Assembly (NCBI GenBank): GCA_039679545.1
Contig: JBDKUT010000015.1
Location: forward strand, 1 to 47,786
DNA length: 47,786 bases
Source: Thermotogota bacterium
GTDB lineage: Bacteria; Bipolaricaulota; Bipolaricaulia; UBA7950; UBA9294
Direction of reading: 5' to 3'
In this document: piece after piece, positions 36,511 to 47,786 of the stretch
Layout of the letters: the number at the start of each line of letters is the position of its first letter
Numbering within the stretch: the stretch's first letter is position 1
Program-made: the position numbers and the translations under genes
Notes under the pieces: model-generated
What the model saw: the letters and a program-made list of their open reading frames with translations, nothing else
The model's database searches: none
Told to the model about the DNA's origin: nothing

Positions 36511-37656
36511 CTAGAACGGAAACGCGTGCGAGACCACGATACGGTCGAACCCGGTCTTCGAAACCGCCAGGGAGAAGGTGAGGTCGCCCAATTCCACCGC
36601 CGGCTGACCAATGCAGCAGGCCAGGTCGAACCGCAGGGTGACTTGAGCCGACGGGATATCGAACTGCATCCCTCCTTCGTACTGGTCGATGATCTCAAAC
36701 GTCGGAGTCACGTTGACCGACCACGCCTCGAAGGCGCGCGTCCAGTTGAAGCTGAGGGCCAAGAGCGTGTCGGAGTCGAAGGCTACCGTCGACAGGAGTT
36801 GCCCTTCGAAGAACGGCCGGCGCATCGAGATGCTGCCCTGCACGAAGGCGTCCTCATACGCGAACGTCGCGTTGAGGGCGATGTCCCTGACGATGCCGCC
36901 GATGCTGAGCGAGGAGCTTTCGTAGGAGAAAAGGTCTGAGAACCTGGCGTTCGCGCGAAGCGTGAAGTCGTCCAAAAGAGGAATCGGTAGCTGACCGCTC
37001 CACGAGATGTTCTCCGAGTCAAGGCCCGTCTGCCCGAACAAGACGTCCAGCGCCGCTCGGCCCCCGCACAGCTCGAGGTCCGTCACGGAGAGGCGCAGTC
37101 CGGCAAAGGAGGGAATGCACCCCGCTTCTTCGATCTGCCCATAGGGGGTCGCGCCGAGTCCAAGAATGGTGGAGATCCGGGCGAACCCCTCGATGACCCC
37201 GGCGATTCGGATCGTCATCCCTGCGCCGATGGCGGACTCTGTCTGCGTCCCAAGCTCGGCAATCAGGAAGGTTGCGGAGTACGCGACTCCCCCCGACCGC
37301 CCGGACACGGACAGGTCAGCGCGGCTGAACCTGTCGCCTGTAAACGAGCCGCTCCCCTGAAGAGAGAGGTCGCCGAACGGAGCGCTGACTCGGAAGCTCT
37401 GAGCGAGAAGCCCTTCATTCGCGAAACTCGTCCGGCTCGAAATCGAGAACCGATCGTAGCGGTACGTGATGGCCAACGACTCGCTCAGCGTGAGCGTGGT
37501 GATGTCCATGTCCGACATGGACAAGGAGAACGTGTTCGCCCCGGACAGGGAGACCTGCGCGGCGGATGCGCCGAGGGGGACGAAGCTCAGAACGAGGCCG
37601 ACGACCACTCCCAGCCCGATGCTCTCCTTGGACCAGCGCAATCTCCCCTTGCCCAT
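36511..37656 (-). CDS. Secreted beta-strand-rich, outer-membrane-barrel-like protein
   Basis: Signal peptide, Ser/Thr-rich alternating strands, C-terminal HAFPF. Confidence 0.7.
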   Translation of the reverse strand: MGKGRLRWSKESIGLGVVVGLVLSFVPLGASAAQVSLSGANTFSLSMSDMDITTLTLSESLAITYRYDRFSISSRTSFANEGLLAQSFRVSAPFGDLSLQGSGSFTGDRFSRADLSVSGRSGGVAYSATFLIAELGTQTESAIGAGMTIRIAGVIEGFARISTILGLGATPYGQIEEAGCIPSFAGLRLSVTDLELCGGRAALDVLFGQTGLDSENISWSGQLPIPLLDDFTLRANARFSDLFSYESSSLSIGGIVRDIALNATFAYEDAFVQGSISMRRPFFEGQLLSTVAFDSDTLLALSFNWTRAFEAWSVNVTPTFEIIDQYEGGMQFDIPSAQVTLRFDLACCIGQPAVELGDLTFSLAVSKTGFDRIVVSHAFPF

Positions 37657-37825
37657 ACACGGACAAGGGTACGGATGGAACGTCGCGAGCTAGTACCACC
37701 CGTTCCGTCGATGATCCGTTCTTGTCCGCTCGACGACGGACATCGGGCACTCGAAGCGGACCCCGTTCAGAGAACGCGGACGACGCCTCTCGAAGTGCCC
37801 TAGGATTGCTGCGGCCTCTCAGGGA

Positions 37826-38191
37826 TCAGTCGACGTAGTCCTCGATATCGTCCAGCTGGCGCTGCATGGCATCGAGCATGTACTTGATGTCGTCGAGCGT
37901 CCACTTCTGGACGTCGAAGAAGCCGTACTGGGAGTCCGTCATTTTCACGGACACCTGATGAACCAGATCAACCTCGGCGTCAAGGTCCGCAAGCTCCTCC
38001 TCCACCGCGGTCATGCGCGCCTCGAGGAGGTCGAGCCGGTTCTTTCCCTCTGGTGTCACGAGAAGGTCGTAGACCTGCTGCAAAGTGACTGGAGCCGGAG
38101 AGGAGGTTTGCCCGGCAAAGAGCGCGAGACACACCCCCACAATCGCTACGGCTCCCAGAATCCCCGCCAGTCGGTACCCTCGCCTCTTCAT
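37826..38191 (-). CDS. Membrane-anchored coiled-coil hypothetical protein
   Basis: SD AAGGAGG, TAGAAT upstream, N-terminal TM, heptad-like acidic helix. Confidence 0.75.
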   Translation of the reverse strand: MKRRGYRLAGILGAVAIVGVCLALFAGQTSSPAPVTLQQVYDLLVTPEGKNRLDLLEARMTAVEEELADLDAEVDLVHQVSVKMTDSQYGFFDVQKWTLDDIKYMLDAMQRQLDDIEDYVD

Positions 38192-38289
38192 CGGTTCCTC
38201 CTTCTTCCTATTCAGTCCGATTCTACCTCGTTGCGCGCTTCCTGCTCGCCCCCAACAGTGTACGCCGAGGACAGACGAGCGAGAACTCC

Positions 38290-39654
38290 TCACGGGCGAC
38301 GAAGTCGCTCCACGGCGCCCCACGCGTCGACAAGTCCGTTTCCGAAAAGCACGTCCCGTCCTCGCTGTCCGAGATCCTCGCACGAACTCTCGAGGACAGC
38401 GATCGCTTCGTCGGCGGAGAGCTCGGGAGCGAGCGAGAGAATCAACGCGAGAATCCCGGACACATGCGGAGCGGCAAACGAGGTCCCCGATTCGGTCGCC
38501 GGTCTTCCGCCCGCAGTAAACGCCGTGATCGCGTCCCCGGGAGCGCAGACGGCCACCTCAGGTCCGCGATTGCTGAACGGCGCCAGAAGGTCGCTGCGAT
38601 CCGTCGCGGCCACGGCCAGAACTGAACGATACTTTCCTGGGTACATCACCTGGTTCTCTCCCCGGTTTCCGGAGATGCCCACGACGATCACCCCGCGCGC
38701 GCGCGCATCCGAGACGGCCTGCTCAAAGTAGTCGGGCGGACGGGCGCTCGCGTAGATGCTCAGGTTGATGATCCGAGCGCCGTTGTCCACCGCGTACTGG
38801 ATTGCGCGGACGAAGATCTTCCAATCCGAGGAGCCAAAGCGATTCGAGGAGTCGAGGAAGCGAACGTCCATGATCGACACCCCCGGGGCGACGCCGACGA
38901 TGGGGTACTCGCCGGGACGTGCGGCAATGATCGACGCAACAAACGTTCCGTGCCCGTGAAGCGGCGTGCCCGTGAGCGAGCTCGAGTCGTTATCCCGGAA
39001 ATCCCATCCGTGCACGTCGTCGATGTAGCCGTTGTGATCGTCATCGACGCCGTTGCCGGGCACCTCGTCGGGATTCGTCCAGAGGCTCGCGGCGACCTGG
39101 GGGATGCGGGCGTCGATGCCGGAGTCGATCACGGCGACGATCACGCTTGGGTCACCGTGCGATGCGGTCCAAGCTTCGGGTCCCCCGATTCGAACGAGGC
39201 CCCAGTTGCTCGGCTGCTGGTACACCGTGTAGAGACCCGGGTTCGGGGCGGGCTTCGGAGCGAGCGGAAGGGCCACGGAAAGGATCTGAAACGGCAACGT
39301 CCCCGACGTCAGGTTCCCGCCAACCTCCAGCGCGATCTCCAGGAGGTATGTTCCGGCGATCTGATACTCCCACCGACTGGTCGCCTCGACGACAACCAGG
39401 GCTCCCGCGTCTGCGGAGAACGGACCAACCGGAACTTGATCGATCCCCTGCCCGGAGTGCCCCATGTCCCGCAACGTCGCCGTTCCCCGCACGTTCTCCT
39501 GCGGGAATGCCGTGGAATTGGAGAACTGGAACGACACGGTGAAGGGGACGAGATTCACGATCTCAATCTTCTGAATCTGCGCTTCGCCGGCGGCCGTCCC
39601 GAGAGAGAGAATGACGAGGAGGACGGCGATACGCAGGACGCGCGGCTTCCTCAT
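38290..39654 (-). CDS. Secreted S8 (subtilisin-like) serine peptidase with an N-terminal Ig-like domain
   Basis: VIDSG (Asp), HGHGT (His), SGN, GTSFAAPHVSG (Ser); Ca-loop NGVDDDHNGYIDD; ATGA overlap with the upstream gene. Confidence 0.93.
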   Translation of the reverse strand: MRKPRVLRIAVLLVILSLGTAAGEAQIQKIEIVNLVPFTVSFQFSNSTAFPQENVRGTATLRDMGHSGQGIDQVPVGPFSADAGALVVVEATSRWEYQIAGTYLLEIALEVGGNLTSGTLPFQILSVALPLAPKPAPNPGLYTVYQQPSNWGLVRIGGPEAWTASHGDPSVIVAVIDSGIDARIPQVAASLWTNPDEVPGNGVDDDHNGYIDDVHGWDFRDNDSSSLTGTPLHGHGTFVASIIAARPGEYPIVGVAPGVSIMDVRFLDSSNRFGSSDWKIFVRAIQYAVDNGARIINLSIYASARPPDYFEQAVSDARARGVIVVGISGNRGENQVMYPGKYRSVLAVAATDRSDLLAPFSNRGPEVAVCAPGDAITAFTAGGRPATESGTSFAAPHVSGILALILSLAPELSADEAIAVLESSCEDLGQRGRDVLFGNGLVDAWGAVERLRRP

Positions 39655-40952
39655 CCAGCCCGATCCTCGTCTGCCTCCGCAAACCAGCGGAGAGCCTGAT
39701 CGAGCGACACCTCCTCCGTCTCTCCCCACCCGCCCGACCGAATCCGCAGGGTCACGGGGAAGGAGAAGAGCGACGTTACGTCGGAGGCAAAACGTTGGAG
39801 CCGTTCCGCTGCCACCGCCGCCCCGTCCGCCGGCGTCTCGGGGAGGATGGCCGCCAGACGATATGAGTCGATTCGGAACACCGTGTCGACCCTCCGCAAG
39901 CCCGAAACGAAGAAGGTCGATGCTCGTACCAGCGCGCGCGTTTGGTCTTCGAGCGCCCGGCCGGACAGGCCTTCGACGTCCAGCACGAGGGCCGACGTCG
40001 GGTGCTTGTACCGCCGTCCCTTGCTGAGTTCAATCTCGAGTTGCTCGCGGAAGTGAGCGGCGTTGTACAGGCCCGTGACGTCATCGAGGACGACGAGCTT
40101 CTTCAGTTCCTGTTCGTGTGAGTGGATGACTTTCGTCATCAGGTTGAACCGATCGACCAACTGCGCAACTTCGTCACGAACGGGCGTCCCGGGCGTCCTG
40201 GGCGGCAGCTTGACCTCCACTTCGTAGTCGCGCATGGCGACCGCGGCCGTCGCTTGCGCCAGCCGTCCGATCGGCCGAGTCACGATGGCGCGCAGCACAA
40301 GGAAGAGGCTTCCCCCCAAGAGGAGAAAGCCGACCACGGATCCCGCGGCAAATTGCCACGAGAGGCGGCGGTCGTAGGCGGCCATTTCGTCGGTCGACAT
40401 GTCCACGATCACGACGCCGACGAGGTCGGCCCCAGAGAGAATGGGCTGATAGGCACGCCACGCGCGAGTCCTCTCGGCGCGCTCCACGGTCGCTTCACTC
40501 CCTTGCATCTGTTCGTACCGCGCCCTGACCGTGTCCGAGGCGAGCTCTCCAACTTTCGTGGGGTCAGTGCTCGCGACCGTCAAGAACCCGCGCGCCGTCA
40601 CCCCGATGACCGTGATCTCGATGATGGATTCGTAGCGCGCAAGGAGTTGGTCGATGTCCGCACTGAGTTCGTTGGAATAGTAGAGGACGTAGTCCTTCTC
40701 CTGGATCGACTTTGAGATGAGGCTCGCAACGCTCCGAGCCCGCTGCTCGTAGATCGACCCGATCGACGCGTGAAGCGACACGAACGCGAACCAAGAGAGG
40801 GCTCCCACGACGGCGCACGCGATCAGGAGGACGGGGACGATCAACTTCCACTGCAGGGACGTCCCATACCGAATCGCGGACCTCATTCGCGCGGGCCGAC
40901 CGGGGTCCGATCGGCCGTTCTTCCGGGCCTTCGACTCGATGTTCGTACTCAT
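39651..40952 (-). CDS. Membrane sensor-HAMP protein with a degenerate GGDEF domain (I-site retained)
   Basis: 2 TM, HAMP (RDEVAQLVDRFN), DDVTGLYN, RRVD-TVFRI-DSYRL in place of RxxD-x5-GGDEF. Confidence 0.85.
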   Translation of the reverse strand: MSTNIESKARKNGRSDPGRPARMRSAIRYGTSLQWKLIVPVLLIACAVVGALSWFAFVSLHASIGSIYEQRARSVASLISKSIQEKDYVLYYSNELSADIDQLLARYESIIEITVIGVTARGFLTVASTDPTKVGELASDTVRARYEQMQGSEATVERAERTRAWRAYQPILSGADLVGVVIVDMSTDEMAAYDRRLSWQFAAGSVVGFLLLGGSLFLVLRAIVTRPIGRLAQATAAVAMRDYEVEVKLPPRTPGTPVRDEVAQLVDRFNLMTKVIHSHEQELKKLVVLDDVTGLYNAAHFREQLEIELSKGRRYKHPTSALVLDVEGLSGRALEDQTRALVRASTFFVSGLRRVDTVFRIDSYRLAAILPETPADGAAVAAERLQRFASDVTSLFSFPVTLRIRSGGWGETEEVSLDQALRWFAEADEDRAG

Positions 40953-40971
40953 AGCTCCTCTTCCTCGGCGG

Positions 40972-43386
40972 CTACTGGATCAATCCCTCGTTCCCCAGGA
41001 ACTCCATAACCACGTCGAGCGGCTCTCGATGGAGCAGGCGAACGCGGCTGACCATGCTGTGCAGGCTCTGTTCGGTCAAGTGAGTCTGCAACCCTACGAA
41101 GACCTGCTCGATCTCGGGGAACCGCCGAACGTCCTCTCGACCGACCAGGACACCGATGGGCTTCCCCGGCAGAGCGAAGGCATCGTCTTCGAGCCGCACA
41201 AACCCCGCCACGGTCGCCGTCTCCTCGACGTTCTCGAGCAGAGCCCCGGAGACCGATCCGAACTTGAGCAGGGCCTCCGCTTCCTCGCGCGTCGCGGTCC
41301 GACGCAGCGATCTTGCCGGCACTTCGTAGGCGGAGGTGAAGCGAGCTACGGCGTCGTCCGAAACCTCGCCAGGAACGGCAATCGTTCTCTCCTCCGCATC
41401 GCGGGAGCCCGCGAACGCGGAGATCGACGGCTTGTCCAATCCTCGGGCGATCTCCCCCGGGACAATCAGATCCCACCGCAGGTCCGTCGGCACGCTCCAG
41501 TACACGGGCGTTCCCGGCGGCGGAGCCGCGCCGACCCACCAGACGATATTCACGTCGCGCTCGCCTATCGCCGCCAGCAGCTCCTCCGATGTTCCAAGCC
41601 CCGCGAGGTCGACGACGCGAAACCCGACCTCGGAGAGCAGAACCTCGAGAGCCTGCCCGAGAACAAGGTCTACGAGGTCGCGCCCCGCGGCAACCACGAT
41701 CGTTCCCTTCCACGCCGTGTCGGGAAGATGGATGTTGCCGGACACAAGGGCATCATGGTGGATCCAGCGATTGCCCCCCGCGTAGAGCCGCTCAGCCGTC
41801 TCGTTCCTCACGTCGTGCAGGCGGTTCCTCTCGAACAGGTTGTTCTGGACGATCGGCGTCCCTCCAGGCGTCTCCTCGACAAGGGAGATTCCCAGCAACG
41901 GGAGGACGGTATCCTCTTCCGAGAGGGCTCCCTGCCACCGCAGGCCGACGTCGTTACCGACCAACCGATTCCCTACGACGCGGACCCCGAATCCGGGCGC
42001 GTACAGGCTGACGCCAACGTCACAGTCCGAGACTCGGTTCCCCTGGATCGTGTCACGCGAAGAGGTAGCACTGAGGATTCCCACCGCCGTCTCACTCACA
42101 GCGTTCTCGATCACATCGTTTCCTTGGCAGTGGTTGGCGAGGGCGACGCCGGAGAGCCTGCAGTGGTCCATCACGCTTCTCAGAACGGAGTTCTCGCTCG
42201 CTCCGACGAGGACGACACCCGATGCCGAATCGTTGATGCGGTTGTCGAGGAGACGGTTGCGGCGGGCCTCAGCAAGCAGGATCCCGGTCGTGTCCATCCG
42301 AGCGATCGTGTTGCCGAGTAGGCGCTCCTCCGAGGATCGCGTGAGGGCAATCCCTATCTTGCCGTCCGAGATGCGGTTCCGTGCGATCAGGTTCATGTCA
42401 CTCGCATCGATGCGAATTCCTGCATCGCGGCATTGCGACAGACGGCCGTCGACGAACGCGTTCTCTCCTCCCCCGGCAAATCGAACCCCATCCCCTGCCG
42501 AAGGTCCTACAACGTTTCGCTCGAGGTGGCTCCTACGGGCCTCGATGAGAGAGACGCCGACGTCCTCGACGGACGCTATGAGACAATCCAGGATGCGGTT
42601 CCCGTCTGTCTCCTCAAGGATCACGCCGACGCGCGATGCCCTGATTCGACTTGCCTCGAGCGCGTTGCCTCGTCCCCCAAGCACCTCGTAGCCGACGATC
42701 GACGCTCCGGCAATCCGTAGGCCGACAAAGACGTTGTCCTCCGATTCCCCGACGGAGACTCCCGTCGGTGCTCCATCGACCGACACGTTGCGAAATTCGT
42801 TCGCCGGGGCCTTCCGGAGTCGGATCCCGGTCTCGTCGCATCCGCGCAAGGCGATTCCCCGGAAGACGTTGCCCGACGAAGCAGAGACGTCGACACCAAT
42901 TGAACTTTCCTCGGCGGTCAGCCGCTCGAAGGTTCCCTGGCGGCTGCCGGAGAGGAGCACGGCGATCTCGTCGCCGCGAGCCCGAACATCCTCGACGCGG
43001 CATCCCACCCCTTCGACGACCAGGGCCACGGAGGTCCCCTGGATGTTGAGACGCCGCACGGCCGTGGCGTCCGCACGAAGGGTGACGACCGGCTCGTTCT
43101 GCCCGACAAGGACCGCTCGTCCCCGCGTCGACGTCAGGACGAGGCCTGCCGTGCCGAGCACCACAGGTCCGGCGTACGGTCCTCGGCGGGCATCAAGGAC
43201 GATCGTTGTCCCCTCGGCGGCGACCTGAAGGGCCTCCGCAAGAGTGGCGGCGTCACGCGGAACGAAGAGACTTCCTTCGGGAAAGCGGTCGCGCGTAGCG
43301 ACCCAAACAACCAGTACGACCATCGCCACCACGCCGACCGCAGCGATGGCGACCCAGAACGGCTTCCTCCTGCGTGCGTGTTTCAT
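40972..43386 (-). CDS. Membrane-anchored right-handed beta-helix (NosD-like) protein fused to a glycine-betaine/OpuAC-like binding domain
   Basis: N-terminal TM, many G-I-x-L...N-x-I repeats, C-terminal GFRVVD..LG, SISAF, LEDD..P, helix ending EFL..EGLI. Confidence 0.78.
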   Translation of the reverse strand: MKHARRRKPFWVAIAAVGVVAMVVLVVWVATRDRFPEGSLFVPRDAATLAEALQVAAEGTTIVLDARRGPYAGPVVLGTAGLVLTSTRGRAVLVGQNEPVVTLRADATAVRRLNIQGTSVALVVEGVGCRVEDVRARGDEIAVLLSGSRQGTFERLTAEESSIGVDVSASSGNVFRGIALRGCDETGIRLRKAPANEFRNVSVDGAPTGVSVGESEDNVFVGLRIAGASIVGYEVLGGRGNALEASRIRASRVGVILEETDGNRILDCLIASVEDVGVSLIEARRSHLERNVVGPSAGDGVRFAGGGENAFVDGRLSQCRDAGIRIDASDMNLIARNRISDGKIGIALTRSSEERLLGNTIARMDTTGILLAEARRNRLLDNRINDSASGVVLVGASENSVLRSVMDHCRLSGVALANHCQGNDVIENAVSETAVGILSATSSRDTIQGNRVSDCDVGVSLYAPGFGVRVVGNRLVGNDVGLRWQGALSEEDTVLPLLGISLVEETPGGTPIVQNNLFERNRLHDVRNETAERLYAGGNRWIHHDALVSGNIHLPDTAWKGTIVVAAGRDLVDLVLGQALEVLLSEVGFRVVDLAGLGTSEELLAAIGERDVNIVWWVGAAPPPGTPVYWSVPTDLRWDLIVPGEIARGLDKPSISAFAGSRDAEERTIAVPGEVSDDAVARFTSAYEVPARSLRRTATREEAEALLKFGSVSGALLENVEETATVAGFVRLEDDAFALPGKPIGVLVGREDVRRFPEIEQVFVGLQTHLTEQSLHSMVSRVRLLHREPLDVVMEFLGNEGLIQ

Positions 43387-43472
43387 CGGGCCCACTCTAG
43401 CACACGCGCTCGCGCGCCGTCCAAGTTGCGTTTCACGGCTCTTCGATCCCTCAGGGGGCGCACCGACAAAGA

Positions 43473-44003
43473 CTAGTCGGGCATGATTGTGCAGACGAGG
43501 AGGGCTTCTCCGTTCGCCCTGTCGGGGCTCGACCCATCCAGGGCCACCCGCACGTCAATACCGACGTCAAACGTGCCGTTGGAGCCGCTGCAGAGGACGA
43601 CCGGCTGGTCTCCGAGCGCCGCGTAGCCGCGCCCGTGTTCCCTCACGCGCACTGGCGGGAACCCTCTCCCAGAGGAGGTGGCCCAGCGTACCTGAAGGCG
43701 CCACGGCGTGTTGCTGACTATGCGGAAGCGGAAGGCATTCTCGTCTTCAATGTAGCCGCGTGAGCGCTCGAGGGCCGATGCAGGTCGGAAGCTGTATGAG
43801 ACTGCGGTCACGTCCTCGGACGACCCGGCCAAGCGGAGCGTCTGGTAGGGGAGGACTCGCCATCGCACGTCGACGGACACCGACTTCTCGACGGCGTACG
43901 CCGCGACGGCGACAACGGACAGCGCGAGGACAACAGCCCAGACCCATCGGCGGCCCACCAAGCAAGAACCTCCCGATCGCTCCACGCTCGGATCCTCCTC
44001 CAC
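43473..44003 (-). CDS. Secreted beta-sandwich, pilin/fimbrial-subunit-like protein
   Basis: Signal peptide (AYA), VSVDVRWRV..SNTPWRLQV.., terminal hydrophobic strand; start uncertain. Confidence 0.55.
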   Translation of the reverse strand: MEEDPSVERSGGSCLVGRRWVWAVVLALSVVAVAAYAVEKSVSVDVRWRVLPYQTLRLAGSSEDVTAVSYSFRPASALERSRGYIEDENAFRFRIVSNTPWRLQVRWATSSGRGFPPVRVREHGRGYAALGDQPVVLCSGSNGTFDVGIDVRVALDGSSPDRANGEALLVCTIMPD

Positions 44004-44022
44004 GTGCTTCCATTCTTCCTCA

Positions 44023-45075
44023 TTACGGAATCGATAAGACGCGGCCGAGAAGGGCGGTGATGTCGGCTGTGGTGAGGATGCCATCGTTGTCGAAATCGAA
44101 CGCACGAACGTTGTTCCGGACAGCCGGGAGGTCGAGAGAGGCCTCGAAGAGAGCCACATCGGCGCCATCGAGGTCTCCGTCTCCATCGATGTCCTCGAAC
44201 AGTCCATCTCGGTTTACATCCTGGGGAGGTCTCGGAAAGGTTCCGAGCGGCACGAGGGTGAGCTCTGGAACGCGAAGGATGATCTGCCCTGCGACGAGGT
44301 AGTCGCCTCCGAAGTCGATCACGGTCCGAACGAGGAACATCCCCGAATCGAGCAGGCTCCACGGTGTCTTCACGACGGCGTCCACCGAGTGCCCGGGAAG
44401 AATGGAGAGATGGGGTAGAGAGGTTTCGGCGAGCGTGGCACCGCTCGGAGATTGGATGGAGAGCGTTCCGAGAACGTCGTCAAGCCGCGTCTCCCCGCGA
44501 TTCGCGACGCTGAACTCGATGGTGAGCGGCGAGAGACCGAGCGCAGTGACCCGTGTGACGGCCGCACCTTGCGCGGCTGGGAGGGACGTAACGTAGATCT
44601 TGACGAGGAACTCCCGCGCCACGCGGATTCCACTCTCCTCCGGGCCGGCGTCAACCGGGCTCACAGCAACAAGGAGGCCCGCCCAGTACGTGCCCGCCAC
44701 CCCCGCAGGGACGGAGATGCCGCAAGAGACTTCAACCTCGTCCGCGGGGCGCAGCACGTACGTGGGTGCCGACAGAGCGAGCCACGTCGCGCACGAGCGC
44801 TCAAGGGTTCCGGAACGGGAAAGACGAGTCACGCCGTCGGGGTCCTCGTCCCAGTCGCATGGCGAGATGTCAACGCGGAGGGGCGAGTTCTCGTCGTTGA
44901 GGACCGTGAAGCGCACTTCCAGATTGGATCCCGGCCCCACGACGAGGGAGAACTCCGACACCGAGACAGTGATTCCTGGAGCCGACACGGAAGCGCCAAC
45001 CACTGCGGCCAACACAAGGACTCCCCACTCGAGGAGCCTGCGTCCGTTGCCACCGGCCTCGCGACGAGCGCTCAT
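44023..45075 (-). CDS. Fimbrial-chaperone-like two-Ig-domain protein with a C-terminal dockerin
   Basis: FTVLN..DW..DG..SCATWL..VP..GTYWAGLLV, N-G-(E)T motif; DVNRDGLFEDIDGDGDLDGAD...FDFDNDGILTTADI. Confidence 0.7.
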   Translation of the reverse strand: MSARREAGGNGRRLLEWGVLVLAAVVGASVSAPGITVSVSEFSLVVGPGSNLEVRFTVLNDENSPLRVDISPCDWDEDPDGVTRLSRSGTLERSCATWLALSAPTYVLRPADEVEVSCGISVPAGVAGTYWAGLLVAVSPVDAGPEESGIRVAREFLVKIYVTSLPAAQGAAVTRVTALGLSPLTIEFSVANRGETRLDDVLGTLSIQSPSGATLAETSLPHLSILPGHSVDAVVKTPWSLLDSGMFLVRTVIDFGGDYLVAGQIILRVPELTLVPLGTFPRPPQDVNRDGLFEDIDGDGDLDGADVALFEASLDLPAVRNNVRAFDFDNDGILTTADITALLGRVLSIP

Positions 45076-45148
45076 GGTTCCCTGTGTAACGCCCTCGACC
45101 TGCCGAAACAAGAGCACGTGGCGCGGAGAGGTTTCGGCGGCCGCGCCG

Positions 45149-46855
45149 TCACGCGGCTGCCGCTCGCAGCCTCTCGAGGACGCCGTCCAACGGCTCCGGA
45201 CGACCGATGTGGAACCCCTGCGCACAATCGACGCCGATCGCCCGCAGGACGTCCAGCGTCTCCTCCGTTTCGACGAACTCCGCGATCGTTCGCTTGCCGA
45301 GGCCCTTGGCCAGCTGGACCATCGCCACAACCAAGTGCTGATCGACTGGGTCGCGTCCGAGGTTGCGGATGAAGCTCCCATCGATCTTGAGGTAGTCCAC
45401 GTCCAGGTTCTTGAGCTGGTAGAACGAGGAAAACCCCATGCCGAAGTCGTCGAGCGCGAACTCGTACCCTTGCGTTCTCAGGGCGCGGAGGAAGTCCTTG
45501 GCCACGTGGATGTTGTAGATCGCTGCCGTTTCTGTGATCTCGAGCACGAGCCGGACAGGGCCGATGACCGACAGCGATGTTCGGCTCGAAATTGCAGACA
45601 AGAGGGCGGGGTCGGTGAGCGACCGCGGCGAGAGATTCACGGCGAACGAGACATCGCTCGGCAGCTGCTCGTCGGCCAGCGTGTCCATGACCTTCTGAAG
45701 GACCCACCGGTCGATGTCCCCACTGAGCCCGAACTGCTCGGCAACGTCGAGGAACGCGCCGGGTGGAATGATTTGCCCGCTGCGCCCTAGGAGGCGAAGG
45801 AGGATCTCATAGCGGATGATCCGATTCTCGACGAGATCGAGGATGGGCTGCGCGTAGAGGATGAACCCGTCGTTCTCAAGGGCGTTTCGGATTACGCGAA
45901 GCCAATCCACGCGCGATTCGGGGTCGTCAACCTTCTCCTCGTCAGGAGAGTAGAGGCAAGACCGATTGCGCCCTTGCGCTTTCGCTCGGTACATCGCCAT
46001 GTCGGCCTTCATGAGGAGCTCACTTGCGCTCGTTCCGTGATCGGGGAAGAGGACAATCCCGAGGCTTGCCGTCGTTCGAAGCGTCTCCCCGTCGATCACC
46101 GCGGTGTGCTTCCGCACCGCATCGAGCAGCCGTCCCGCGGCAATCTGGGCCTGTTCGCTGTCTACGTTCAGGTAGAGGACGGCAAATTCATCGCCTCCAA
46201 GACGAGCGAGGATGTCCGAATCCCTGACGGTCGCCCGCATTCGATGGGCAAGACTCGCGAGGAGATCGTCGCCGACCTTGTGGCCCAGACCGTCGTTGAT
46301 CTCTTTGAACCCGTCGAGGTCCATCCACAGGACGGCGCCACGCCGTTCGTAGCGACGGGCCTCCGCGAGATGCCGCTCGAGGAGATGCCCGAACTCCCGG
46401 CGGTTGCAGAGCCCGGTCAGGGGGTCGTGCGTCGCGAGGTGAAGCAGCCGTTCCTCCTGCTTCCGAAGCTGGGTGATGTCCGTGAGGATCCCCTCGTGGT
46501 AGAGGATCTCCCCCTTCCTGTCGCGAACAGCGCGCGCGTTCAGAAGAGCGGCGACGGACGGACCATCCTTCGCTCGCAGCATCATCTCGGCGTTCTCAAC
46601 GCGAACCCCTTCCCGCAGCTGGCGCAGAACGACTCCGGCATCGCTCTCCACCTGGAACACGTCCGTCATCCGCGTCTGTCGGAGCTGGCCCGCGTCGCGA
46701 TAGCCGAGCATGTGCGCCAACGCGTCGTTGGCCAGGACCAGCCGCCCGTCGGGCGAACACTGGTAGATTCCGTTCGACGCGTGGCGGAAGAGGTCCTCGA
46801 AACGTCGATCCACACTTGACGTCCTCTCTCCACCCGCCGTGTTTCGCCTCTCCAC
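45149..46855 (-). CDS. PAS-GGDEF-EAL diguanylate cyclase/phosphodiesterase
   Basis: PAS/PAC; HDPLTGL, DLDGFKEIND, RDSD-ILARL-GGDEF; EILLR, DDFGMG, KIDGSF, AEFVE, QGF; SD GAGGAGG before GTG 46855. Confidence 0.95.
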   Translation of the reverse strand: MERRNTAGGERTSSVDRRFEDLFRHASNGIYQCSPDGRLVLANDALAHMLGYRDAGQLRQTRMTDVFQVESDAGVVLRQLREGVRVENAEMMLRAKDGPSVAALLNARAVRDRKGEILYHEGILTDITQLRKQEERLLHLATHDPLTGLCNRREFGHLLERHLAEARRYERRGAVLWMDLDGFKEINDGLGHKVGDDLLASLAHRMRATVRDSDILARLGGDEFAVLYLNVDSEQAQIAAGRLLDAVRKHTAVIDGETLRTTASLGIVLFPDHGTSASELLMKADMAMYRAKAQGRNRSCLYSPDEEKVDDPESRVDWLRVIRNALENDGFILYAQPILDLVENRIIRYEILLRLLGRSGQIIPPGAFLDVAEQFGLSGDIDRWVLQKVMDTLADEQLPSDVSFAVNLSPRSLTDPALLSAISSRTSLSVIGPVRLVLEITETAAIYNIHVAKDFLRALRTQGYEFALDDFGMGFSSFYQLKNLDVDYLKIDGSFIRNLGRDPVDQHLVVAMVQLAKGLGKRTIAEFVETEETLDVLRAIGVDCAQGFHIGRPEPLDGVLERLRAAAA

Positions 46856-46957
46856 GTCGCCTCCTCGCCAACGTCGCACTGACCGCGGTCGCCGCGTTCC
46901 GAGCCCAACCTGCTCCAGGAGCGAGAAGAGCGAGCCGCGACCTGGGCATCGTGCAGG

Positions 46958-47278
46958 TCAAAGCTCCGAAAGAAGCTCGACGCCGATCGCCGCCAGCCAA
47001 CACAAGAAACTTCGCTCGATTGTCGCGTCAAAGAACGTCAGCCCGCGGGGCCCGTGAGCCGTCGTGAACCGCCCGATGTAGTCCATGATGGCAGTCCAGT
47101 CCTCGTCAGGAATTCCATCGTGAATCGCGTGCGGTTTGTCCACCCGAAGCATCCGCAAGATGTCGTCGATCGTGTACTCCTGGAGGCGGTCGGCGACGTC
47201 GGCGAAGCGGACATCGCGCCCCTCATCCAAAAGACAGAGGACCCCCTGGACGAACTTCCTCACTGAACTTCGATACAT
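46958..47278 (-). CDS. Hypothetical cytoplasmic helical protein (~106 aa)
   Basis: SD GGGAGG before ATG 47278; natural composition; no recognised motif. Confidence 0.6.
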   Translation of the reverse strand: MYRSSVRKFVQGVLCLLDEGRDVRFADVADRLQEYTIDDILRMLRVDKPHAIHDGIPDEDWTAIMDYIGRFTTAHGPRGLTFFDATIERSFLCWLAAIGVELLSEL

Positions 47279-47623
47279 CCATGGCCTCCCGATGGCGAGT
47301 CTATGCACCGCACCCCACCGCGGAAGGGACACTCGTACGTCGTTGAACTCCCGTTTCTCTCCTTCCGCGAGCACCGCGTGGACGGCGGGCAGGGGCGGTG
47401 ACCGCTACCCTCGCTCGGATCGCCACTCTGCGGACAGGCTCCCGCCGAGCGCGAATGTCTGAAACCGGGTCGTACGGGGCAGAATCGGGTAGCGGTCCTT
47501 GACAAGTGAACTGAGACGGGCGCAGGGAGAAGCTCCCTGCGCGAAGGGTTGATGGAAAAACGATTCGAAGATTGCGGCGGGCGGTCCGCCGCAATGCAGT
47601 CATATCCTCACTCGAAGCATCTA

Positions 47624-47703
47624 CCAAAGGCAAACCGCTCGAAAGGGCGGGACGCAAAGCTACGGACCTTCCAGGCGAGGCTCGCGCGAGCGGGTCTGCG
47701 TGA
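47624..47703 (+). ncRNA. c-di-GMP-I (GEMM) riboswitch aptamer A: intact 5' half, non-canonical 3' half
   Basis: AAGGCAAACC-gctc-GAAA-gggc-GGGACGCAAAGCTAC; no canonical ..GCTGCCGA closure before the next aptamer. Confidence 0.7.
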
Positions 47704-47778
47704 CAAGGGCAAACCAGGGGTGACCCTGGGACGCAAAGCTACGAGCCTCGGGCGACCGAGGTAGTCGAGCTGCCGAGG
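47694..47778 (+). ncRNA. c-di-GMP-I (GEMM) riboswitch aptamer B
   Basis: AGGGCAAACC-aggg-GTGA-ccct-GGGACGCAAAGCTACGAGCCTCGG-gcga-CCGAGGTAGTCGAGCTGCCGA; G at the position equivalent to Vc2 G20. Confidence 0.92.
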
Positions 47779-47786
47779 CGCCTAAT

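Follow-up and report, generated by a model that had tools for sequence, protein, structure and literature searches.

Class I riboswitches for cyclic di-GMP (c-di-GMP), called c-di-GMP-I or GEMM-I (Rfam RF01051/RF03167; for example Vc2 of Vibrio cholerae), have as their hallmarks a GC/GC pair, a P2 stem with a GNRA loop, a receptor-bearing P3 stem and the nucleotides G20 and C92, which belong to the ligand pocket (PMC6140456). They are also known in tandem (Bacillus thuringiensis Bc3-5, PMC4759541; 347 doublets, PMC9481103), where two aptamers for the same ligand share one leader and are expected to sharpen the dose response. In the accessible parts of these reports the tandems are complete units in series, and the main texts of two surveys (PMC9481103 and PMC12452182), as far as they are available, likewise describe aptamers in series and use the word "nested" 0 times. 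Our literature search, whose coverage lay mostly outside subscription journals and supplements, where such RNAs may appear as ordinary doublets, found no paper on a nested riboswitch and none describing c-di-GMP riboswitches in Bipolaricaulota. The 47,786-nucleotide (nt) stretch of DNA analyzed here (the window) is the entire contig C15 of a 2.35-Mb genome that is 93.6% complete, and close homologues are labelled Bipolaricaulota. At its right end are two c-di-GMP-I matches that we predict to be a single nested RNA, with one c-di-GMP-I aptamer inside stem P3 of another.

The region is made up of two back-to-back units, a minus-strand cluster of c-di-GMP and envelope genes and a plus-strand leader RNA. 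We consider it probable that the nested leader turns on translation of a pilin-like protein, and that the pilin and the cluster act through the pilus and inside-out signalling mechanisms proposed below.

The leader RNA

The two Rfam matches, at 47619-47688 (40.4 bits, partial) and 47699-47778 (68.7 bits, E 2.8e-14), are both on the plus strand within the last 170 bases of the window and face away from the gene cluster. The original prediction had riboswitches sitting among the genes of this region; their strand and their place at the contig end do not agree with this, and they appear to form one nested element rather than two switches. The RNA continues past the window: the window's final 13 bases are the first 13 of contig C36, and in run X2 (same study, second sample) one contig of 2729 nt spans window positions 46565-47786 plus C36:1-1520 with 0 mismatches, which demonstrates that the two contigs join.

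The second match is a complete inner aptamer (47699..47778, plus strand) with G20 at 47708 and C92 at 47773, whose P2 and P3 covary. The first is the 5′ half of a predicted outer aptamer (47617..47668, plus strand), with the 5′ strand of P1 at 47617-47623, G20 at 47629, a GAAA loop on P2 and the 5′ arm of P3 at 47658-47668. Its 3′ half (3′ arm of P3, C92 and 3′ strand of P1, placed in the Rfam consensus register) would lie outside the window at C36:14-34, where the P1 strand has 7 nt complementary to 47617-47623. The pocket pairs would thus be G47629 with C36:27 in the outer aptamer and G47708 with C47773 in the inner one, so both pockets have G20 and C92, and both aptamers have the GC/GC pair, the GNRA-capped P2 and a P3 with a receptor bulge, recognized by Rfam and covariation in the inner copy and by long-range pairing in the outer copy. 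Unlike Vc2-type RNAs, the outer aptamer has a whole second aptamer, together with a small hairpin, in its P3 loop, and because this places its halves about 110 nt apart Rfam calls it truncated.

Is this arrangement peculiar to one contig? We searched 185,579 GTDB species genomes with a pattern of two closely spaced 5′ halves only (exact matches, spacer ≤40 nt), which did not include the outer 3′ half and which misses divergent nested forms such as that of relative G032. The search gave 50 loci, in records titled Bipolaricaulota, Acetothermia, uncultured Thermotogae or uncultured bacterium and in one Neomarinimicrobiota-titled record with two loci. In a metagenome set that was held out, 80 of 116 matches were examined and 77 of these are uncut. 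The outer 3′ half is present in 47/47 uncut GTDB loci and in 76/77 uncut metagenome loci (the exception is a visible variant), and its motif has a single occurrence in the whole genome that contains the window. In all of these 47 and 76 loci the 3′ half of the first aptamer is downstream of the second aptamer, which does not fit a head-to-tail tandem; whereas the published tandems, in the parts of those reports that are accessible, are complete units in series, here one aptamer is inside the other and the two share a translational platform.

The complementary strands of this fold are conserved. An outer P1 of at least 6 base pairs (bp) can form in 45/46 distinct GTDB loci and 61/63 distinct metagenome loci, compared to about 2% of shuffles, and the mean P1 duplex energy is -9.1 kcal/mol for cognate strands and -7.7 kcal/mol for permuted partners. 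In an alignment of 41 of the 50 GTDB loci (3 contig-cut loci, 2 near-duplicates and 4 with long insertions were dropped), the three long-range helices taken alone have 83.4% of their cells paired, as against 23-39% when slid, and they contain 24 double-sided changes versus 7 after shuffling. An interleaved arrangement, in which the two aptamers swap their halves, pairs worse than the nested one in 41/41 loci.

Two points weigh against the nested prediction. Most of the outer P3 is invariant, both sides having changed in only 1 of its 10 pairs, and it has a mismatched basal pair in 23/41 loci; in addition, the loci are related to one another, so that the shuffle counts overstate the significance. 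The mismatched P3 base and the thin covariation there would be expected if the inner aptamer alone binds ligand and the outer shell is a duplication relic kept as scaffold and expression platform. Rfam scoring only the inner copy as complete, and a leader in L025 that retains just a single aptamer and the downstream platform, agree with such a relic as well. Conservation of the outer GC/GC pair, the A that follows it, C92 and the GNRA loop in 41/41 loci, double-sided changes at 6/6 pairs of the outer P2, and an outer position 20 that is only ever G or A, the two states known to select the ligand, speak for a second working pocket, and we regard the relic as decidedly unlikely.

Returning to the nested RNA with two pockets, position 20 of the inner aptamer is always G, and that of the outer aptamer is A in 7/46 GTDB and 8/63 metagenome loci. 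Loci with outer A20 and inner G20 include L094, L097, L104, L111, L122, L123 and L132. A20 is the determinant of cyclic AMP-GMP (c-AMP-GMP) recognition, and some A20 aptamers bind both ligands, according to the available part of PMC6140456; the bases at these positions suggest mixed c-AMP-GMP/c-di-GMP sensing at such loci. In another relative (G012, L086:4090-4485) a single c-di-GMP-I aptamer is found about 170 nt 5′ of the nested pair, giving three aptamers in the leader region.

The downstream gene and the predicted switch

Past the contig join, C36:68-532 encodes a 154-amino acid secreted pilin-like protein, and in two genomes of the same genus (G003 and G005) the leader is contiguous with the gene for a 154-amino acid secreted protein, which demonstrates the target gene of the leader. 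Control of the minus-strand genes by the riboswitches was considered and is ruled out by strand, since plus-strand elements cannot lead them. The C36 pilin is homologous to the pilin-like protein encoded within the window (hhalign probability 98.4%, E 8e-15), and homologues of the window gene are themselves riboswitch-led in other families of the class. Converging on the C36 pilin gene is a gene fragment for a giant surface protein of at least 4383 amino acids with DUF11/CARDB repeats (L071:640-13791); the giant protein is also present in G003 and G005, and in G032 it is near a chaperone gene.

Upstream of the leader, 47499-47504 (plus strand) is a perfect -35-type hexamer with the same flanks as those upstream of the leaders in L117 and L137. 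It is a candidate promoter for the riboswitch transcript, and our scan found no -10 element that matches it. An inverted repeat at 47571-47595, just 5′ of the leader, is kept with base changes at many nested-riboswitch loci and may form a 5′ hairpin or bind a protein.

Folding calculations predict that the leader is a translational ON switch. The predicted 5′ strand of an OFF clamp (47604..47622, plus strand), which shares bases with the outer P1, pairs with the tail of the Shine-Dalgarno sequence, the start codon and the first pilin codons on C36. The calculated energy of this duplex is -24.0 kcal/mol here, and over 46 loci its mean is -21.8 kcal/mol for cognate strands, -18.4 kcal/mol for permuted strands and -9.9 kcal/mol for shuffled strands, with 0/5000 permutations as strong; the clamp tracks the first codons. 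A second switching strand starts at 47780..47786 (plus strand), where the contig end cuts it, and would either extend the outer P3 (ON) or pair with C36:47-55 over the Shine-Dalgarno sequence (OFF). This hairpin over the Shine-Dalgarno sequence uses strands of the outer P3 and P1 and has 94% of its alignment cells paired with weak covariation, and the Shine-Dalgarno sequence is paired with a probability >0.7 in 43/46 ligand-free leaders.

In the model we propose, the 5′ end of the leader and the downstream hairpin would cover the Shine-Dalgarno sequence and start codon when ligand is absent. When c-di-GMP is bound, the inner aptamer would fold and close the junction in the outer P3, and the outer aptamer would then claim those strands for its P3 and P1, exposing the ribosome site. 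It is because the ligand-bound nested fold uses the strands of the OFF pairing that c-di-GMP would free the ribosome site. The calculated energies do not favor this scheme, however: averaged over loci, OFF is more stable than the ON secondary structure by 15 kcal/mol, and this leaves the start-codon clamp out of the count; for the two closest relatives the gap is 9-11 kcal/mol (9 in G003). Since ON is the less stable fold, switching requires ligand and tertiary energy or kinetic control. We infer that this gap poses a genuine problem for switching at equilibrium and could plausibly account for the two pockets or for co-transcriptional trapping; two binding events may help the RNA to overcome, or to forestall kinetically, its unusually stable OFF fold and may sharpen the response.

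The pilus-like subunit and a putative chaperone

Among known fibres, the chaperone-usher pili (Csu, CFA/I and type 1) and the orphan fibre TLP-1 (PMC11494351, as far as accessible) are close comparisons for the present system, which has a chaperone with the fold of two immunoglobulin (Ig) domains and a subunit modelled with an Ig-like core and a free N-terminal strand. WxLIP-type proteins chaperone a donor-strand pilus of Enterococcus, a system reported, in the available part of the source, to be confined to Bacillota (bioRxiv 10.64898/2026.10.17.759780). The window encodes a secreted, two-Ig chaperone-like protein with a C-terminal dockerin-like EF-hand module (44023..45075, minus strand; identified by AlphaFold2, Foldseek and profile matches) and a secreted pilin-like subunit (43473..43961, minus strand, with its start at 43961 or 43958), the homologue of the riboswitch-led C36 pilin.

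The AlphaFold2 model of the chaperone has a predicted local distance difference test score (pLDDT) of 92.6, and its two-domain fold is PapD-like, as in the chaperones of chaperone-usher pili. Its best Foldseek match is WxLIP (E 3.5e-12), and FimC (1.1e-8), CsuC (2.2e-8), CfaA and Caf1M are also matched. Its sequence profile matches EfmWxLIP1 and dockerins, and the WxLIP_PGBD model matches 6/23 family members (best E 8e-4), the window chaperone not among them. The model of the C36 subunit (pLDDT 95.3) leaves residues 1-15 unpaired, and this N-terminal strand has an alternating hydrophobic pattern. Its fold aligns with TLP-1b (Z 7.4, root-mean-square deviation (rmsd) 4.1, 125 residues aligned) and with CsuA/B (Z 7.2, rmsd 3.6, 106 residues aligned), scores with which unrelated Ig domains tie.

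WxLIP is thus the best match by both profile and structure, and as in the WxL/WxLIP pilus small secreted subunits are encoded alongside, but there, in the accessible description, the chaperone is membrane-anchored, whereas here it has a dockerin-like end, no WxL subunit is matched and the system is riboswitch-led. The subunit is about half the length of TLP-1b, and in contrast to chaperone-usher systems no usher-like gene is present at the locus. We conclude that the system resembles a chaperone-assisted donor-strand pilus, and may work like one, without qualifying as a chaperone-usher or WxL member. The C36 pilin would polymerize by donor-strand exchange, and the WxLIP/PapD-like chaperone and minor subunit of the window, or a paralogue, would assist.

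Several results weigh against a pilus. The subunit Z scores are below 8, in the range of common Ig-like matches; a Foldseek search with the subunit gave no match at E <0.001; the Pfam Usher model (PF00577) has 0 matches in the 93.6%-complete genome; and at least two other chaperone paralogues are present there, so the client of the window chaperone is not fixed. Sequence-profile searches of both subunit families against the PDB gave nothing significant, and neither the window subunit nor any of 23 members of the riboswitch-led subunit family has a Pfam WxL match. If the small secreted proteins and the two-Ig protein were generic Ig-domain parts of the envelope or S-layer, one would expect such modest fold scores, which tie with CEP192 and cadherin domains, and would expect the lack of a Pfam pilin match in the 23 family members and of a Pfam usher; the dockerin-like tail, which suggests anchoring to cohesin-bearing proteins, fits as well. 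Such an origin does not explain why pilus chaperones dominate the top structural matches of the two-domain protein, why an N-terminal strand with alternating hydrophobic residues stays unpaired in the subunit model, or why the order pilin(s), chaperone, secreted protein of about 900-1600 amino acids recurs across families. We think generic envelope parts unlikely and prefer the chaperone-assisted pilus.

Elsewhere in the class, other families have on a single strand, and in this order, a riboswitch, one or more pilin-like genes, the chaperone-dockerin gene and the gene for a 900-1600-amino acid secreted protein. The genome itself has a paralogous cluster on contig C133 (L073:6468-11197) with two pilin-like genes, a chaperone and a secreted protein of 897 amino acids that is Ig-like at its ends and has no annotation in its core. 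The latter is the best usher candidate, but it matches solved structures only in its Ig-like parts; for the profile of the usher-sized family, too, the matches were confined to Ig-like parts (PKD, SdrD and others), with VDAC at E ~0.9. At C92:14999-17725 a third chaperone-like gene and a two-domain pilin-like gene are directly downstream of a sigma-factor-like gene, and sigma-factor-like genes also adjoin the nested leaders in L084 and L088.

Pili were recently imaged at the toga ends of the first isolate of the phylum (bioRxiv 10.1101/2025.11.21.689855, whose accessible text uses "chaperone" and "c-di-GMP" 0 times); a closed genome of the phylum is reported, in the accessible part of PMC6092417, to be without pilus genes. 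We offer only tentatively, at somewhat short of even odds, the fuller proposal that a Bipolaricaulota nested riboswitch, cooperative or, in its A20 variants, a c-di-GMP plus c-AMP-GMP AND gate, gates the major subunit of an undescribed WxL/TLP-1-related donor-strand pilus, possibly that of the toga ends.

The minus-strand cluster and the meaning of the locus

Nine protein genes occupy 36511-47278, all on the minus strand as first described. The first encodes a 106-amino acid conserved protein (46958..47278), usually directly upstream of the PAS-GGDEF-EAL gene and 64-97% identical among relatives; it has no NCBIfam match, and a longer frame has no Pfam match. A lead from an atlas to a coupling-protein fragment (0.93, 139 shared features) was weak and not adopted. 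This gene still leads the cluster in G009, G026 and G033, where GGDEF-EAL is absent or reduced, and because the position is kept without an intact GGDEF-EAL gene its product may regulate the cluster. The PAS-GGDEF-EAL enzyme (45149..46855) has Pfam EAL (8e-69), GGDEF (2.5e-46) and PAS domains, and its GGDEF, RxxD, EIL, DDFG, KID and AEFVE motifs are kept in 8/8 aligned orthologues (EIL is EVL in two), so that its cyclase, I-site and phosphodiesterase motifs look intact, in line with the earlier description of intact-looking motifs. It is followed by the chaperone and pilin-like genes. In G005 (L021:15710-18010) the GGDEF-EAL frame continues into the chaperone with no stop between, and at G001:C27:19121-20091 the chaperone is split over two frames; these are either assembly errors or decay of a variable insert.

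Next come an N-terminally anchored right-handed beta-helix protein (40972..43395, start at 43395 or 43386; Pfam NosD/Beta_helix), a Cache-HAMP-degenerate-GGDEF membrane protein (39651..40952; Pfam and orthologue alignment) and a secreted S8 subtilase with an Asp/His/Ser triad (38290..39654), whose start overlaps the stop of the receptor gene by 4 nt. The beta-helix protein ends in an OpuAC-like solute-binding domain (25.6 bits, cut-off 21.2; weak PDB matches to osmoprotectant-binding proteins) that was absent from the first listing; the protease, beta-helix and dockerin-like assignments made there are genuine Pfam matches. The N-terminal Ig domain of the protease is homologous to domain 2 of the chaperone (93.9%), and S8 genes are also found within chaperone loci of other families. 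The last two genes, in the cluster only within the genus, encode a 121-amino acid protein with a signal or anchor and a coiled coil (37826..38191) and a 381-amino acid secreted, beta-rich protein that ends in Phe (36511..37656). The latter is possibly an outer-membrane barrel; it has no Pfam or NCBIfam match and matches unnamed Bipolaricaulota clusters, and the label "barrel-like" it had been given has behind it a weak Porin_4 lead.

Which of these genes belong together? A search of 61 genomes gave the receptor in 24, all of one family, and the following counts are for 27 copies in relatives (the receptor fragment at G001:C211 was left out). The beta-helix gene adjoins the receptor gene in 25/25 testable copies and the S8 gene is next in 21/27. 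An orthologue of the GGDEF-EAL gene is inside the cluster in 7/27 copies, as is the chaperone and pilin-like pair (7/27, two of them rearranged), and the barrel and coiled-coil genes are inside it in 3 copies, all of the same genus. From these counts the beta-helix/OpuAC, receptor and S8 genes are the stable unit and the rest is a variable assembly. The proposed comparison of gene neighbourhoods came out mixed: the order is the same in three genomes of the genus (G001, G003 and G005, as far as contigs extend) and the core is kept family-wide, but the enzyme and the chaperone-pilin pair are not. The DRTGG, response-regulator and kinase genes that neighbour the cluster are the same ones across many genera, the G+C content of the region is 0.639 (genome 0.650), and in tetranucleotide use 33% of 255 genome windows of equal size are at least as deviant. 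The cluster is not the island it had been called but one that has been inherited vertically in Bipolaricaulota.

The original prediction also saw in the region a self-contained island in which enzyme, protein receptor and riboswitches make a local circuit for the neighbouring envelope genes. The identical order within the genus, the fact that the enzyme is the sole EAL match of the genome, and a riboswitch divergently beside the cluster in 8 relatives are in line with that circuit. All 8 of these riboswitches face away, however, and the one in the window would act on a gene outside it; only 7/27 copies have the enzyme together with the receptor, and besides the enzyme there are eight other GGDEF and eight HD_5 matches in a genome with 9 GGDEF, 8 HD_5 and 7 c-di-GMP-I (RF01051) matches and no compositional anomaly in the region. 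A local circuit is accordingly very improbable. For the back-to-back units that we favor instead, one count is awkward: a c-di-GMP riboswitch is next to the cluster on the same contig in just 6/27 copies (2 more are on a split contig), and a scan of seven further loci found no c-di-GMP riboswitch. The link between c-di-GMP and the cell surface nonetheless holds in that the cluster is conserved and riboswitches head pilin-chaperone loci across the class.

The five other c-di-GMP-I matches of the genome are single (C124:24159-24729, C133:23067-23142, C99:19309-19409 and C52:2808-2892), and most precede genes for secreted surface proteins or small regulator-like ones, as would fit a surface regulon that extends across the genome. 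Internal promoter-like boxes had been noted in the cluster, but a scan for sigma-70-type promoters only found 0 sites, with 0.9 expected by chance. Terminator-like sites are at chance level (7 seen, 8.4 expected), and an Rfam scan of the cluster at E up to 5 gave just weak miRNA and snoRNA matches and no third riboswitch. In RNA run X8 a single 35-nt piece matches the window and none matches C36, which is uninformative on expression.

The earlier call of a degenerate GGDEF domain stands. The GGDEF motif of the Cache-HAMP protein is lost and reads IDSYR, its RxxD and downstream Arg are kept as in I-site-type receptors, and R353, D356 and R384 are invariant in 11/11 orthologues in which the catalytic motif is variable. 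Because its RxxD aligns with that of WspR and the spacing matches the I-site of PleD, the protein is likely, judged from these residues, to be a c-di-GMP receptor that has kept its I-site and lost catalysis. The grouping of a membrane-bound sensor-HAMP-GGDEF protein with a protease and a partner outside the cytoplasm, and with a giant DUF11-repeat surface protein on C36, resembles the inside-out or periplasm-linked c-di-GMP modules LapD-LapG-LapA, YfiBNR and NspS-MbaA, and NCBIfam has weak LapD and YfiN matches to the receptor (LapD model 21 bits, cut-off 1020). Unlike LapD, it stops with the GGDEF domain, lacks EAL and retains the RxxD I-site; the neighbouring protease is an S8 subtilase rather than LapG, with 0 matches to the LapG-type Peptidase_C93 (PF06035) in the genome, and the partner is a beta-helix/OpuAC fusion. 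By analogy the trio may work like LapD/LapG or YfiN-type modules, yet it fails the Lap tests. Receptor, partner and S8 protease could form an inside-out c-di-GMP module that steers the processing of surface proteins, and the GGDEF-EAL enzyme would supply the genome-wide c-di-GMP pool and not a private one.

By itself the gene cluster is of moderate interest, as c-di-GMP enzymes and receptors beside surface genes are common. The nested pair, in which a single helix ties together the folding of both pockets, is a natural test of RNA cooperativity or two-signal logic, and at 240 nt it can be probed directly in vitro. Since covariance-model annotation reads such a layout as one good and one decayed match, it may be overlooked elsewhere. 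In Bipolaricaulota its target links c-di-GMP to a candidate pilus.

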